From Thermoplasmata archaeon (GTDB lineage Archaea > Thermoplasmatota > Thermoplasmata > Thermoplasmatales > GCA-001856825): 64,000 nucleotides of DNA. This document shows, piece after piece, positions 17,041 to 44,462 of the stretch. The notes below the pieces were generated by a model. It did not search any database and was not told where the DNA came from. It saw only the letters and a list, made by a program, of their open reading frames with translations. The stretch's first letter is position 1. The number at the start of each line of letters is the position of its first letter. The position numbers were made by a program, and so were the translations under genes. The DNA is taken from NCBI GenBank assembly GCA_021792255.1, contig JAJYUZ010000001.1, positions 96,001-160,000 on the forward strand, written 5' to 3'.

Positions 17041-18132
17041 ATGAAAATCATAAAAAACTCCGCCGCCCTCTCACAAGATTACGTTCCAGAGATAGTTTTA
17101 GGAAGAGAGGAACAGATAAATCAGCTAAAGGAATTAATCAGAGTCAGTGACGTCTCTTCTACATTTGTGATCAGGGGAAACCCAGGAACTGGAAAGACTC
17201 TAACCGGCAAGTATCTTTTGAAAGACCTGAAGGAATTCAATGGTGTGTACGTCAACTGTTATGTCAACCAAACGGACAGGTCAATAGTATCTAGCATTCT
17301 TGATAATCCAAACATCAGGCTTCCAGAGATAGGAAACACAAGATCAGAATCTTTGTCCAATCTTTTATTCAAAGAATTGCCTTCCAAGAAAAACTTAATT
17401 GTGCTCGACGAGAGTCAATCACTAAAGCGGAGTCACGGTCAGATTGTTTACTTGCTATCTAGGAGCAAGGAACTGGGCGGACCGGATATAAAATTGGTAC
17501 TCTTGTCGATGGAAGAACCAGAAATGTATCTTGACAGAAGCACATTATCGGGTTTGGGCAGATACAACAGGATCACTTTGAAAGAATACAGTATCAGCGA
17601 GCTCTTTAATATCCTCAAATCTCGAGCAAGTATCAGCCTATATGAAGGAGCATACACGGATTCCGCAATAGGTAAGATATCTGAACTTACTGAAGAGAAC
17701 GGAAGCGCCAGGATCGCAATAGAATTGTTAAGAAATTCCGCCCTATTTGCAGAATCGAGGGGCACATTTCTAGACGATGAGACAGTCCTCAATGCTTACA
17801 GGGAATTTTCTCCACCTCTTGACGAAAGCTCGCTGATCAATCTCGAAGAGGACGAAATTCATCTGTTGAGGTCTTTATTAGAATTAACAGACATTGAGAA
17901 CGGATTCAAAGCATCAGACCTAAAGAATCTACGGCCCGACTTGAGCGACTCAAGAATGTACAAATTTTTAAAAACAATTGAACTGTCTGGACTAGTCAAA
18001 AAAAGCAGGGTGGGAAAGGGGTATTCGGGAGGAGTCGAAAATGAGTACCTGCTAAGAGTCTCGCCACGCGTACTAATCAGTAAATTGAGCCTAATTGAGA
18101 AATCAATTGGAATGTCCCAAAAGGAAGACTAG
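17041..18132 (+). CDS. Orc1/Cdc6-family AAA+ ATPase, divergent paralog
   Basis: LSQDYVPEIVLGREEQI, Walker A GNPGTGKT, YVNC, Walker B VLDE, GSARIAIELLR, and a C-terminal winged-helix-like region. Confidence 0.85.
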   Translation: MKIIKNSAALSQDYVPEIVLGREEQINQLKELIRVSDVSSTFVIRGNPGTGKTLTGKYLLKDLKEFNGVYVNCYVNQTDRSIVSSILDNPNIRLPEIGNTRSESLSNLLFKELPSKKNLIVLDESQSLKRSHGQIVYLLSRSKELGGPDIKLVLLSMEEPEMYLDRSTLSGLGRYNRITLKEYSISELFNILKSRASISLYEGAYTDSAIGKISELTEENGSARIAIELLRNSALFAESRGTFLDDETVLNAYREFSPPLDESSLINLEEDEIHLLRSLLELTDIENGFKASDLKNLRPDLSDSRMYKFLKTIELSGLVKKSRVGKGYSGGVENEYLLRVSPRVLISKLSLIEKSIGMSQKED

Positions 18133-18198
18133 AAATTCGTCCGAGTTATACGTTCAAATACCGAAAGATATATATAGTGTCATATTAATGTCATTATT

Positions 18199-18750
18199 AT
18201 GTCAGACAATTTTAGAGTACTCGGTGTTGGAGGTGCTGGGATTAATGCGGTAAAGGCTCTTGGTTATAGCAATTCAATCTATTTAGATTCTCAAAGTTAT
18301 GATTCTCTAGAGGGTATAAAGGAATTTCTCAAAAGGATCAGCAGAAATGAGAAGGTAGTCGTAATCTCATCGCCAGCTGGAGAATTTTCATCCGCGGTAC
18401 TAGAAACTGTCTGTAACGCTCTCAACTCAAATGGAGATAGCGTTTTCTTGATAGGAATAATGCCATTTCATAGCGAATCCCCTGAAAGGAAGAGGAGAGG
18501 GGACGCCGTCCTTAGAAATTTAAAAAAAGCCGTAGACTCCACCGCAATCATTGAAAACGAGAACTTTGCTTCTTCCATGAGAGAATATTCTTGGACTCAG
18601 GTACTGGCTAGGATCAACGATCACGTCGCTGACCTTGTCAAAGAATTTATCACTCTTGGAGAAAATCAATTTTCCCCTACGGTACATGAAGTTGTGGTAT
18701 CCAAAAGACAATTGGAATACTCTCCAACCGTGCCTACTGTTTCTAACTGA
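18199..18750 (+). CDS. Truncated FtsZ/tubulin-like protein (N-terminal domain only, degenerate GTPase motifs)
   Basis: RVLGVGGAGINAV (T1) and IMPFHSE...LKKAVDSTAIIENE align by eye to the FtsZ at 43324-44415. GGGTGTG and the T7 loop are absent. Has its own TATA at about 18167-18177. Confidence 0.8.
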   Translation: MSDNFRVLGVGGAGINAVKALGYSNSIYLDSQSYDSLEGIKEFLKRISRNEKVVVISSPAGEFSSAVLETVCNALNSNGDSVFLIGIMPFHSESPERKRRGDAVLRNLKKAVDSTAIIENENFASSMREYSWTQVLARINDHVADLVKEFITLGENQFSPTVHEVVVSKRQLEYSPTVPTVSN

Positions 18751-20557: not shown

Positions 20558-21871
20558 ATGGATGGGGAGAAATTCCTATTTTCACTCTCAAGATTTGGCA
20601 TTAAGTTGGGGTTGGGCCCAACGACTGCTTTTGCCAAATTGCTAGGGGACCCTCAAAACAGATTCAGGAGCATTCACGTTGCAGGCTCGAATGGAAAGGG
20701 ATCTACCACTACTTATCTCTACAGAATTCTGAAAAAGCGTTACTTTACAGGGTTGTACACTTCGCCGCATCTGCGAAGATTTTCTGAAAGAATCATTGCT
20801 GGTGATGAAGAAATACCGTCCACTTTCATAGACGAGTTTGTGACAAAGCACAAATCGATTATTGAGTACAACGGAGAAGATACTCAGCTCACTTTCTTTG
20901 AGTACACAACTAACATGGCGTTCGACTTCTTTAGTAAAAAGGGAGTTCAGTTTGCAGCAGTAGAAGTCGGACTGGGAGGAAGACTTGATTCCACCAACAT
21001 ACTGACTCCTGACGTATCAGTTATAACGAGTATTTCTCTCGAACACGCAGACAAGCTTGGAGGGAGCATAGAATACATTGCGAGAGAGAAAGGGGGAATA
21101 ATCAAAAAAGGCGTACCGCTCGTTATCGGGAAAGTTCCTGAAGTCGCCAATGAAATCTTCCAAGGTATTGCAAAACAAAATGAATCGCCCGTTAAGCAAG
21201 TGAAGGATTGTTCTGTAAGAAATCTTGATTTCTCACTTTCTGGCACGAGATTTGAACTTGACACACAGTCCAACAAATATGATGTCGAGTTGAAGGCGCT
21301 TGGAGAGCATCAAGTGAACAACTCCATTGCCGCCATCCTGGCGTGCGAGTCCATAAGCAATCCTCCCGATGCAGGCGAAATACTTCACGGATTGAAAGAA
21401 GACCAGATATCTGGTCGATTCGAAGTCAGAAGGAGAGATCCGTTGATGATTTTAGATGGTGCACACAATTCTGAAGCTTCCAGAGTTCTCAGTTCGAACA
21501 TCAAGAAGTACTCGATAAACGATCCTCTTATTGTCCTTGGAGTACTTAGGGATAAGAATACCTATAACATTTTACAAAACTTATCAGAAGTTGCTGATAG
21601 CGTACTGATAACAGAACCAAACGAGCCAGAAAGAAAAAAAGATAGCGAAGATCTGAAGAGAGAAGCTAAGTTATTTTTCAAAGACGTTGAAGTGGAAAAG
21701 GTTCCGGCAAAAGCTTTAGATGCGGCGATTAATTCTAGGAGAAATACAATAGTAACTGGCTCCCTATATCTGGTCGGAGAGATGGAACTGTTGCTCGATG
21801 ACAAAGAAAAATCAGTTAGCCTTCCAGTGGAAGAAGAGGAACTTCGAAAGAGTCCAGAACTGATTGAATAA
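20558..21871 (+). CDS. folC: Folylpolyglutamate synthase / dihydrofolate synthase
   Basis: IHVAGSNGKGS, YTSPHL, EVGLGGRLDSTN, LDGAHN, TGSLYLVGE. Confidence 0.92.
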   Translation: MDGEKFLFSLSRFGIKLGLGPTTAFAKLLGDPQNRFRSIHVAGSNGKGSTTTYLYRILKKRYFTGLYTSPHLRRFSERIIAGDEEIPSTFIDEFVTKHKSIIEYNGEDTQLTFFEYTTNMAFDFFSKKGVQFAAVEVGLGGRLDSTNILTPDVSVITSISLEHADKLGGSIEYIAREKGGIIKKGVPLVIGKVPEVANEIFQGIAKQNESPVKQVKDCSVRNLDFSLSGTRFELDTQSNKYDVELKALGEHQVNNSIAAILACESISNPPDAGEILHGLKEDQISGRFEVRRRDPLMILDGAHNSEASRVLSSNIKKYSINDPLIVLGVLRDKNTYNILQNLSEVADSVLITEPNEPERKKDSEDLKREAKLFFKDVEVEKVPAKALDAAINSRRNTIVTGSLYLVGEMELLLDDKEKSVSLPVEEEELRKSPELIE

Positions 21872-21909
21872 GAAATCTAGCTTACCGTTTTCCAGTGGAA
21901 AGAGAGGGG
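21822..21909 (+). promoter_or_regulatory. Two ORB (origin recognition box) elements upstream of orc1/cdc6; candidate oriC
   Basis: TTCCAGTGGAAGAAGAGG (21822-21839) and TTCCAGTGGAAAGAGAGGGG (21890-21909) match the archaeal ORB consensus TTCCAGTGGAAAC...GGGG. They lie directly upstream of an orc1/cdc6 gene. Confidence 0.8.
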
Positions 21910-21999: not shown

Positions 22000-23256
22000 A
22001 TGAGCAGTTCATCTAAAAACTTATTCGAAAAGTTCACTTATGCCTCTCTAATCGTTAAGGGGCAGAGGCAAGCGTTAGAGCCTGGATTTGTCCCAGATCG
22101 GCTTCCGCACAGAGAAAAAGAAGCGGAACAACTCGCAGAGATAATTTCTCCTTCACTCAAGAATTTCAAACCATCCAATGTAATTATTTTCGGCAAACCT
22201 GGAGTAGGGAAGACTAGTGTGGTCAAGTTTGTCGAAGGCGAGATATACAAGGCAATGCAGTCAAGACTTGACGTAAGAATCAAACTTATCGACGTGAACT
22301 GCGGAGTCGTTGACAACCCCTACGGAGTCCTTTTGGCGGTCGGCGATGGTCTCCTAGAAACGTGGGAGGAAAAACTCCCATTTACCGGATGGCCACTGGA
22401 TAAACTTTACGCGACCGTGCTCGACAAAGTCAAGAACTTTGCTGGTATAGCGATCATAGTTCTGGACGAAATAGACAAGCTCGTGAAAAAGAGCGGAGAC
22501 TCAGTTCTCTATCAGCTTCTGAGGATAAACGAAGTGACAAAGGAAGGCAGAGTGTGCTTACTGGGCATAAGCAACGATCTACGGTTTACAGAATATTTGG
22601 ATCCAAGAGTCAAGAGCAGACTCATAGAGGAGACTATGGTTTTCAACCCCTACAATGCTTCCCAAATATATGACATACTTAGAGACAGATCTCTTTACGC
22701 CGGGATAGCGGACTCAATTGACGAGTCTGCCATGAAAACTTGTGCGGCGCTAGCGGCTCAGGAGCATGGAGATGCAAGAAGGGCGATAGATATGCTCAGA
22801 ATCGCGGTCGAATTGACAGAAAAGGGAAGCGAGAAGAGGATACTGGACGATACGATATATGAGGCCAAAAAGAAGCTGGAAAGGGATGTAGTAGTCGAGA
22901 CAGTCTCTACTCTACCGTTGCACAGCAAGTTAGTTCTCTTCTCAATTTCTCTCATCGACGAGATAAAGAGCGGAGGAAGTTCTACGATGGGAGAATTTTA
23001 TGACCTCTACGAAAAGATTGCTGACAGGATGGGACTCAGCAGTCTCACTCAGAGAAGAGTAGCGGACATAATAGGCGAATTGACGAATCTTGGTCTCGTA
23101 GATTCCAAAGTCCAGAGTTTTGGAAGGTATGGAAGGACCACAACAGCTACACTCAATTACAGTTCTTCTAAGATCAAGGATATCCTTCTCAGCGATGAAA
23201 TCTTGATGCAGCTCAAGGACGTTAAACCTTCACAGAAATCTCTGCCCGTTTCATAA
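22000..23256 (+). CDS. cdc6: Orc1/Cdc6 replication initiator
   Basis: PDRLPHRE, GKPGVGKT, VLDEIDKL, ISND, LDPRVKSRL, HGDARRAIDMLR, and winged helix with GRYGRT. Confidence 0.95.
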   Translation: MSSSSKNLFEKFTYASLIVKGQRQALEPGFVPDRLPHREKEAEQLAEIISPSLKNFKPSNVIIFGKPGVGKTSVVKFVEGEIYKAMQSRLDVRIKLIDVNCGVVDNPYGVLLAVGDGLLETWEEKLPFTGWPLDKLYATVLDKVKNFAGIAIIVLDEIDKLVKKSGDSVLYQLLRINEVTKEGRVCLLGISNDLRFTEYLDPRVKSRLIEETMVFNPYNASQIYDILRDRSLYAGIADSIDESAMKTCAALAAQEHGDARRAIDMLRIAVELTEKGSEKRILDDTIYEAKKKLERDVVVETVSTLPLHSKLVLFSISLIDEIKSGGSSTMGEFYDLYEKIADRMGLSSLTQRRVADIIGELTNLGLVDSKVQSFGRYGRTTTATLNYSSSKIKDILLSDEILMQLKDVKPSQKSLPVS

Positions 23257-43323: not shown

Positions 43324-44415
43324 CTACATCACCGAGTCAATTTCTGCATCCAATCCCCTTGCTCCTTTTATGGCAACACCCTTGGAGGAGCTAAGGAAAT
43401 AAGGAGAGTTAACGCCCGTGAGGACTACAAGTACCTTGAACTCTCCTACGAGAGTAGGGTCCACAGAAGCCCCCCAAACTATTCTAGCCATTGGATTCAC
43501 TCTTTCTTGGACCATTCTGACGGCAGTCTCTGCCTGAGAAACGGTCATATCTTCTCCGCCCACGATTCTAACGAGTGCGCCTTTCGTGGTGGAGATATCT
43601 GCCTCGATCAGAGGGGACGAAATAGCTTCTGTAACGGCCTCTTCGACCGTCGCTTTACCGCCAGTACTTTCGCCGATTCCTATCATCGCGACTCCGCCTT
43701 CCTTCATTACTGTTTGAATGTCGGAGTAGTCTAGATTCACCAGTCCAGGCTTAGTGATAATCTCGGTCAATCCCTTTAGGGACTCCATGAGTATTTCGTC
43801 TGCGACCTTGAACGCTTGATCTAATGGTAACCTTGGAACAATTTCCAACAGCTTGTCGTTGGGTATTACGATTGTTGTATCTGAAACCTTCCTCAGTTTT
43901 TCGATTCCATAAATTGCGTTATCCATCCTAACTCTTCCCTCTGCAGCAAAAGGCAGGGTAACTATGCTTATCACTAGAGACTTCTGGTGCTTTGCAACTT
44001 CAGCAACGACGGGCGCGACTCCTGTTCCTGTACCACCGCCCATCCCTGAAGTGACGAAGACAATTTCAGAGTTCCCGAGTGAGGATTGAATATCATCGTA
44101 GTCCTCGCGCGCAGCCTCTTCTCCAATCTGAGGAATAGCTCCAGCTCCAAGTCCTCTAGTCGTTCTTTTTCCAACAAGTATCTTCCTGTTGGCCTGAACA
44201 GTTAGCAAATGTGGGGCGTCTGTGTTCATGGCTATCAACTCGGCACCAAATATCCCAGATTTGGCACAGCGGTTCACGGTATTGGTTCCTGCTCCACCAC
44301 AACCCACGATTTTTATGTTCACCTTCATCGATTCTACGATTTTTGCTAGTTCTTCATCATCCGGAGATATGAAGTTTCTCTGACCTTGATTAAAGTAATC
44401 GTTTGGCATAATCAT
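43324..44415 (-). CDS. ftsZ: Cell division protein FtsZ
   Basis: [40 protein letters not shown] (T7), WGA. Confidence 0.97.
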
Positions 44416-44462
44416 ACGTATGTCTGACGACCTATTTATAGTTTTCTTAATATTCTACGCAT

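Follow-up and report, generated by a model that had tools for sequence, protein, structure and literature searches.

A conserved FtsZ derivative reduced to the N-domain and encoded beside an orc1/cdc6 paralog in a Thermoplasmatales family

Gene content of the locus

The window, meaning the whole stretch of 64,000 nucleotides that was analysed, comes from the assembly of a Thermoplasmata archaeon and contains a gene, designated miniZ, that encodes an FtsZ-derived protein consisting of an N-domain only. The lineage hosting miniZ is uncultured. The features of the locus and its surroundings are as follows.

17041..18132, plus strand: cdc6p, a divergent orc1/cdc6 paralog of 363 aa directly upstream of miniZ (Cdc6_lid 52.4 bits)
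18145..18204, plus strand: conserved promoter and putative operator of miniZ (alignment of 17 loci; 22 ungapped loci)
18145-18153 (-54 to -46), plus strand: GTTATACGT element, followed by an A-rich stretch (conserved promoter alignment)
18169-18176 (-30 to -23), plus strand: TATA box (promoter alignment)
18178-18182, 18189-18193 and 18200-18204 (-21, -10 and +2), plus strand: three TGTCA boxes with 11-nt spacing (promoter alignment)
18199..18750, plus strand: miniZ coding sequence, 183 aa, FtsZ-derived N-domain-only protein
18199..18663, plus strand: predicted folded core of miniZ, residues 1-155 (AlphaFold secondary structure, pLDDT)
18664..18747, plus strand: predicted disordered C-terminal tail of miniZ, residues 156-183 (pLDDT below 50)
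21822-21839 and 21890-21907: two ORB-like boxes, TTCCAGTGGAA, 68 nt apart and upstream of the canonical orc1/cdc6 gene (22000-23256)
43324..44415, minus strand: full-length FtsZ, 363 aa (PF00091 161 bits, FtsZ_C 94 bits, TIGR00065 393 bits)

The list of open reading frames confirms that 18199..18750 is an intact frame of 183 aa, as the original prediction had it, and the orc1/cdc6 paralog that was said to precede it is indeed present at 17041-18132. The product of cdc6p has a Walker-type AAA+ core, a Cdc6 lid and a weak winged helix, scoring only 14.7 bits against Cdc6_C (cut-off 25.1) and 133 bits against TIGR02928 (cut-off 181). ORB boxes had been placed about 3 kb away, and two ORB-like boxes were located 3.1 kb downstream of miniZ, the first within the last codons of the preceding frame (20558-21871). 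With at most one mismatch allowed, the window contains seven ORB-like matches against 1.97 expected, and the two boxes probably mark a replication origin. The window FtsZ is one of three in the genome, and FtsZ was found in 25/25 genomes of the family, typically in three copies.

The gene order akr (minus), cdc6p (plus), miniZ (plus), trmH (minus) is kept in all four genera in which miniZ was found, with cdc6p directly upstream of miniZ in 20 of the 21 other loci and a PLP enzyme gene within the block in the window and in 11 of those 21, all belonging to the window's genus. Orthologues of cdc6p (43-77% identity) occur in the same 21 genomes as miniZ. In the genome G335 (C28:114400-121000), three open reading frames of 217, 230 and 359 aa stand between cdc6p and miniZ, and miniZ is intact there with its full conserved promoter. 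The linkage to cdc6 that was to be checked across Thermoplasmata thus holds as adjacency, however the akr and trmH genes are conserved as well and the G335 insertion separates the pair. Adjacency is therefore weak evidence of a function shared by cdc6p and miniZ, since synteny extends over the entire block and each gene has a promoter of its own. A coupling of replication to division, for which the position of cdc6p is the one argument, is speculation.

Beyond the window's family (f1), cdc6p-like matches of 25-34% identity were detected in 85 of 103 genomes of family f3, while no cdc6p orthologue was found at E<=1e-20 in families f2 (0/21) or f4 (0/16). An origin of miniZ from a full tubulin gene beside cdc6 was considered and rejected, since no such gene lies next to the f3 cdc6p-like gene at 5/5 loci.

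Sequence relationship to FtsZ and predicted structure

Comparison with Pfam PF00091 gave miniZ 36 bits (cut-off 33, E 1.1e-8), with residues 36-125 aligned to positions 95-187 of the 190 in the profile, so that the match spans the second half of the profile only. Against TIGR00065 (ftsZ), miniZ scores 34.3 bits and stays below the equivalog cut-off of 295.2, and a Pfam search returned no match to PF12327 (FtsZ_C). The three stretches first aligned by eye between miniZ and the window FtsZ were all recovered by BLASTP and hhalign; BLASTP gives 9/18 identities in the T1 stretch and 12/38 in the PF..ENE stretch, and hhalign with the miniZ family profile aligns residues 49-150 with FtsZ 114-216 (probability 91.7%, E 7.7e-7). 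When this profile was compared with all PDB sequences, 51 chains were matched at E<=1, of which 50 are named FtsZ, the best being T. maritima FtsZ 1w5f (E 6.3e-7); the sole chain not so named, 3zid, which we take to be CetZ, has an E of 0.39 versus 6e-7 for FtsZ. The exact miniZ sequence is present in the ESM Atlas, where a feature search ranks first an unnamed cluster of bacterial tubulin-domain proteins of 168 aa (score 0.92).

The PDB profile search aligns miniZ residues 4-21 with T. maritima FtsZ 23-40 and residues 42-150 with 97-207, revealing an internal deletion in which 20 miniZ residues stand against 56 in FtsZ. Downstream of this deletion, SSPAGEFSS aligns ungapped with the Gly-rich FtsZ signature GGGTG(S/T)G of loop T4, in keeping with the proposed replacement of the signature by SPAGEFSSA: miniZ has SPAGEFSS where FtsZ has GGGTGTG. 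The form SSPAGxFSS is invariant at this place in 28/28 sequences, except for A60, which is conserved at 90% or more.

AlphaFold2, run on the 28-sequence alignment of the miniZ family, produced a model with a mean pLDDT of 79 and a pTM of 0.75, in which the blocks covering residues 1-155 lie mostly between 80 and 94 with a dip to 69 at residues 121-130. The modelled core consists of five strands (5-10, 26-29, 52-57, 81-88 and 114-119), not six as in FtsZ, and six helices (11-21, 37-46, 62-77, 95-108, 120-124 and 132-153, the last being H7). All 40 Foldseek matches listed (to rank 48) are FtsZ, with E of 4.9e-7 to 8.2e-6. VIA-align places residues 1-163 of the model on about the first 215 residues of FtsZ, with Z of 18-20 and rmsd mostly of 2.2-2.6 Å across about 160 residues; the best alignment has a Z of 19.9 and an rmsd of 3.3 Å over 173 residues.

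The N-domain fold with core helix H7 that characterises the tubulin/FtsZ superfamily is thus recognised in miniZ by PF00091, Foldseek and VIA-align, which answers the concern that no such fold might be predicted. These three comparisons and the PDB profile search all point to the FtsZ N-domain, upholding the derivation from FtsZ. According to the model, miniZ is an FtsZ N-domain with H7 that lacks T7, H8 and the C-subdomain. The five-strand model and the alignment of 20 against 56 residues together indicate that helix H2, edge strand S3, loop T3 and part of H3 are absent. The T2/T3 region was accordingly correctly described as largely deleted, however a T2-like pair, D30-S31, follows strand 2 and may be a remnant of T2. 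Similarly, homology does end at H7, with no T7 and no C-domain, but the protein does not stop there: a 28-residue tail follows H7, which is variable in sequence and mostly finishes in a short recurring S-x-N type end.

Promoter of miniZ

The TATA box attributed to miniZ was located at 18169-18176, within a near-invariant promoter. Across 22 loci the 55 nt preceding the ATG can be aligned ungapped, and 31 of these 55 columns are at least 90% conserved, as compared with 5/55 columns in the cdc6p promoter (16 loci). The third TGTCA box overlaps the start codon, where ATG-TCA-GAC encodes the invariant M-S-D of miniZ. In the 1.59-Mb genome the triple TGTCA pattern is found a single time, and five shuffles gave none. 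The position of the TATA box agrees with a leaderless mRNA, which the miniZ transcript probably is. Lying between TATA box and start codon, the TGTCA boxes are interpreted as a putative repressor operator; expression of miniZ would be tightly gated, with the three boxes sitting at the position expected for a repressor. The near-invariant promoter with its phased TGTCA boxes offers a concrete handle toward the regulator.

Outside the window, the only other joint occurrence of TGTCA-N6-TGTCA and GAGTTATACGT in the genome is at G000:C3:345979-346005 (L049 2480-2506), flanked by a 157-aa membrane protein frame on the minus strand and a 476-aa frame on the plus strand; the same putative regulator may have a second site there. 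Two ftsZ promoters (window 44416-44460 and G000:C3:57780-57825) share a similar stretch after the TATA box, CGTCAGACATACGT-ATG and CGTCATACATATAG-ATG, whose faint resemblance to the miniZ boxes may be due to chance. Upstream of the 396-aa ftsZ, at a distance of about 120 nt, there is a near-palindrome, TGACAATTGTCTGACA.

Conservation and selection

A search of a large protein database identified 27 relatives of miniZ with 39-90% identity, 24 of them 173-183 aa long and three of 251-252 aa; those with names are all labelled "hypothetical" or automatically named FtsZ and come from Thermoplasmatales-type assemblies. The miniZ profile obtained five matches below 1e-30 among 1.84 billion cluster representatives, with scores dropping from 144 to below 67 bits apart from a 65-aa fragment at 107 bits. 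At the genome level, miniZ is present in 21 of the 24 other genomes of family f1, distributed over four genera, and the three f1 genomes without it are 61-76% complete. No match was obtained at E<=1e-15 in the other six families of the order (0/143 genomes), and in a class-wide sample 3 of 301 other genomes gave partial matches (E about 1e-11) in frames of 286-300 aa.

Among the 28 miniZ sequences, 26 columns are invariant, including M-S-D at the N-terminus, and the core carries the invariant motifs GGAGxN, SPxGxFSS, PFxxES..R..R and NxNFxSxM. The invariant columns follow strands 1, 4, 5 and 6 of the model, corresponding to the old nucleotide ("top") face of FtsZ. Finite dS values were obtained for only 79 of the 231 pairs of 22 coding sequences, and the dN/dS figures are taken from the two least-diverged, unsaturated pairs (dS 0.56 and 0.72): 0.144 and 0.145 overall, 0.089 and 0.084 for the core (residues 1-150), and 0.44 and 0.52 for the tail. 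Across the same genomes, miniZ proteins share 36-68% identity and the window FtsZ 80-96%, miniZ evolving much faster. The proposed conservation and dN/dS check thus came out in favour of purifying selection, with miniZ in 21/24 f1 genomes and a core dN/dS of about 0.09. A decaying fragment is ruled out by the 22/22 intact loci across four genera, the core dN/dS of 0.08-0.09, the 26 invariant columns, the promoter and the confident fold; miniZ is a working gene and not a relic.

Long forms, compact FtsZ and ancestry

Long miniZ forms of 245-251 aa are encoded in three sister genera of f1. The best AlphaFold model of the long form has a pLDDT of 85.4 (the other four of five models, 62.6-68.1) and adds a strand-helix-strand-helix-strand-strand unit after H7 with only eight residues between. 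Foldseek aligns the long form with whole FtsZ over about 300 columns (E 3e-13, TMt 0.53-0.65), compared with a TMt of 0.40-0.43 for the short form. The AlphaFold model and this alignment suggest that the extension is an FtsZ C-subdomain in reduced form that leaves no space for T7 or H8, a link drawn from the structure model only: Pfam finds no FtsZ_C match in the extension, nor does hhalign reach it when the long forms are compared with individual sequences or with the three FtsZ copies of the window's genome.

Weak PF00091 matches in other families led to a further group, "compact FtsZ", of 257-270 aa (about 260 aa; for example L126:1507-2283, minus strand, among the f2 and f4 loci L110-L134). 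It occurs in 21/21 genomes of family f2, in family f4 with full-length or near full-length matches listed for at least 11 genomes (E 1e-37 to 1e-16), and as 28 unnamed clusters in the protein database. Compact FtsZ retains the GCGGAG and AGLGGxxGT loops and a small C-subdomain, its consensus lacks the NxDxxD motif of T7, and from its sequence it probably binds GTP. It resembles miniZ in a T1-S4 segment shorter than that of FtsZ and the long miniZ forms in the small C-subdomain, and some members share the ESPER motif with miniZ. However, compact FtsZ has about 24 more residues before S4 than miniZ, and its neighbours are different: it directly follows a DUF6015 gene in f4 (L132, L137, L139) and a GCD14 tRNA methylase gene in f2 (L110, L118), with no cdc6 beside it at the f2 and f4 loci.

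The long miniZ profile aligns with compact FtsZ (alignment A7) at a probability of 98.0% (E 1.6e-13, 168 columns) and with true FtsZ at 95.2% (E 2.8e-8, 101 columns), an advantage that the greater diversity of A7 may partly explain. Searching the f1 genomes with the A6 profile returned only classical FtsZ among the top matches listed, and miniZ (f1) and compact FtsZ (f2, f4) have complementary distributions. A maximum-likelihood tree of 41 sequences, built without an outgroup, contains three well-supported clades (miniZ, compact FtsZ and FtsZ), does not tell the sisters apart and leaves the root between the long and short miniZ forms unplaced.

We read miniZ as the last remnant of a lineage of reduced FtsZ paralogs. 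The earliest stage would be represented by compact FtsZ in two sister families, with GTP loops intact and the T7 motif absent from the consensus. The f1 form of about 250 aa would then have lost the tubulin signature, replaced by SSPAGxFSS, together with the H2-S3-T3 segment, and in the window's genus the disappearance of the C-subdomain would have left a five-stranded N-domain with H7, a disordered tail and a short C-terminal motif. The direction assigned to this series follows from the homology of the C-subdomain and not from the tree.

Possible function

In the miniZ model the bottom face is absent, so head-to-tail polymerisation and GTPase stimulation should be impossible for this protein. 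GTP binding as in FtsZ has probably been lost as well, because T3 is gone and T4 has been rebuilt with an invariant Phe. It is therefore probable that miniZ regulates something and builds no filaments. Few regulators are known for archaeal FtsZ-based division.

Tentatively, miniZ is proposed to be a reduced FtsZ paralog whose top face caps or sequesters FtsZ and whose expression is gated. Its conserved top face would act as a protein-docking surface for the T7 or bottom side of one of the three FtsZ proteins, the FtsZ encoded at 43324..44415 being a candidate partner; small amounts of miniZ would then cap or sequester FtsZ, and the tail would hold a second partner. Among possible partners the T7 side of FtsZ is the leading candidate; such a role corresponds to the filament cap or division inhibitor first suggested for the gene, and truncated bacterial FtsZ paralogs that block division offer a parallel (PMC13732431). 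Loop T3 is part of the longitudinal top interface of FtsZ, and the case for a simple cap appears weakened by the deletion of T3 from the putative docking face and the rebuilding of the phosphate loop. With T3 deleted and an invariant Phe in the phosphate loop, the classical GTP-mediated contact between FtsZ subunits is unlikely. The proposal of an FtsZ partner is also weakened because miniZ evolves far faster than FtsZ, and because the compact FtsZ of f4 pairs with DUF6015 and no division gene.

The same observations bear on a second possibility, that miniZ serves a non-FtsZ partner (cdc6p, or a membrane or divisome protein) as adaptor or regulator, docking through its nucleotide face and tail without any direct effect on FtsZ filaments. 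The heavily rebuilt FtsZ-type interface elements and the fast evolution relative to FtsZ favour such a partner, and the pairing with DUF6015 in f4 suggests that the clade may have partners other than FtsZ. The position of cdc6p directly upstream in 20/21 loci and the presence of both genes in the same 21 genomes would single out cdc6p, however adjacency tells little within a neighbourhood conserved as a block together with akr and trmH. In addition, three genes intervene in G335 where miniZ is still intact, the two genes have separate promoters, and the compact FtsZ of f2 and f4 is not beside cdc6 in families without any cdc6p orthologue (0/21 and 0/16). Overall, a partner other than FtsZ is considered a live though less likely alternative.

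The old pocket itself could still be in use, miniZ being a switch whose mode of binding a nucleotide or related small molecule is new and which signals the level of that ligand. The pocket keeps T1 (GGAGxN), the Glu and Arg of T5, the Asn of T6 and an Asn on H7; residues G11-G14, N16, E93, R97, N120 and N140, presumably the ribose, base and phosphate contacts in FtsZ, are invariant or nearly so, and a dead pocket would be unlikely to retain them. However, T3 is deleted, the Gly-rich T4 has given way to a loop in which F63 is invariant and residue 62 variable, and the pocket residues are equally explicable as a protein interface, so a ligand switch is regarded as unlikely, though still a live rival. 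A non-dynamic, GTP-independent scaffold that assembles with itself as a homo-oligomer or in lateral sheets would be in line with membership of the tubulin superfamily and strong surface conservation, but it is very unlikely given that T7, H8 and the C-subdomain are missing and leave no second surface for head-to-tail assembly. The truncated architecture and the lost catalytic motifs would also be expected of a decaying, functionless gene fragment; contradicted by the intact loci, the core dN/dS, the invariant columns, the promoter and the fold, this explanation is hardly credible.

The proposal that miniZ caps or sequesters FtsZ could be extended to a checkpoint-type division brake, an analogue of SulA built from FtsZ. 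Such a brake would be silenced by a factor on the TGTCA boxes and released on replication or DNA-damage signals, possibly with cdc6p serving as a transcription factor in the manner of Orc1-2 in Sulfolobales; once released, it would restrain FtsZ by capping or sequestration for as long as the chromosome is not ready. This fuller scheme is improbable as it stands.

Should they cap or sequester FtsZ, these proteins would be the first division regulators of archaea to derive from FtsZ, and would correspond in nature to the "bottom-face" FtsZ mutants that have been engineered; if another partner is bound, a tubulin N-domain would have been reused as a non-polymerising module. The series read here presents FtsZ as pared down stepwise in nature, from the full protein to a compact form without T7, then to a dead signature and finally to the N-domain alone, with purifying selection at each step.

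Comparison with known systems

Canonical FtsZ (PF00091 with PF12327; TIGR00065) shares with miniZ the N-domain fold with H7 (Z 19.9) and recognisable T1 (GGAGxN), T5 (PF..E..R) and T6 (N) elements. It differs in possessing H2-S3-T3, the GGGTG(S/T)G signature, T7 and the C-subdomain, none of which miniZ has, and in evolving far more slowly. A literature search yielded no description of the miniZ family or of the compact FtsZ clade, the available portions of PMC10058229 and PMC7159879 containing nothing relevant. The FtsZ/tubulin survey PMC9871819, in the part available, dropped sequences with less than 60% alignment coverage, and its supplementary trees might hold members.

Besides miniZ, the genome encodes a second N-domain-only relative of FtsZ without a C-subdomain, an RHH-linked half-FtsZ outside the window (G000:C3:254480-255650, L004 1297..2467, minus strand). 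Unlike miniZ, this protein of 271 aa has an intact GGGTGSG signature, matches PF00091 with 69 bits over the whole profile and is linked to an upstream RHH gene in four families; in profile comparison it matches miniZ less well (81%, E 1.2e-5). It overlaps the upstream RHH-like frame of 139 aa, and the pair is also found in f2 (L104, L105), f4 (L106) and f3 (L094).

Many other N-domain-only tubulin-like proteins of 146-161 aa have a short T2-T3 region and keep GLGG..GS (P0034, P0039, P0043, P0050, P0058, P0064, P0095, P0109 and P0132). They are labelled "hypothetical" or automatically named FtsZ and include bacterial examples from Aliarcobacter butzleri and Paludibacteraceae. Genomes that are at least 90% complete carry 4-5 tubulin-family genes in f1, 5-9 in f2, 6-9 in f4 and 0-3 in f3, where three genera are without such genes (0/9, 0/3 and 0/1 genomes).

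FtsZ mutants altered in the T7 bottom face poison filaments, and SulA and MciZ are inhibitors of FtsZ. The proposed logic of miniZ would be analogous to theirs in blocking one end or face of the filament, however SulA and MciZ have no homology to miniZ, and unlike the T7 mutants miniZ is altered at its top face as well. The PDB titles 1ofu and 4u39 appear among the Foldseek matches of miniZ.

In Sulfolobales, Orc1-2 is an Orc1/Cdc6 paralog that acts as a transcription factor in the DNA-damage response; according to the available part of PMC6061795, it is a non-initiator paralog that binds promoter motifs, and the division stop after damage depends on it. Orc1-2 belongs to another phylum and recognises a motif (ANTTTC) other than TGTCA (PMC6061795, available part), and the best solved relatives of cdc6p are, in contrast, initiator-type Cdc6/Orc1 proteins.

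Agrobacterium FtsZ1 and FtsZ3 are truncated FtsZ paralogs of the Hyphomicrobiales, and continuous expression of FtsZ1 blocks division, an effect that depends on its enzymatic activity (PMC13732431, available part). These proteins are bacterial and of independent origin, and in miniZ half of the fold is gone, as is the signature loop. As far as the available part of PMC13732431 describes them, they share with miniZ the condition of conserved, shortened duplicates maintained alongside a full FtsZ.
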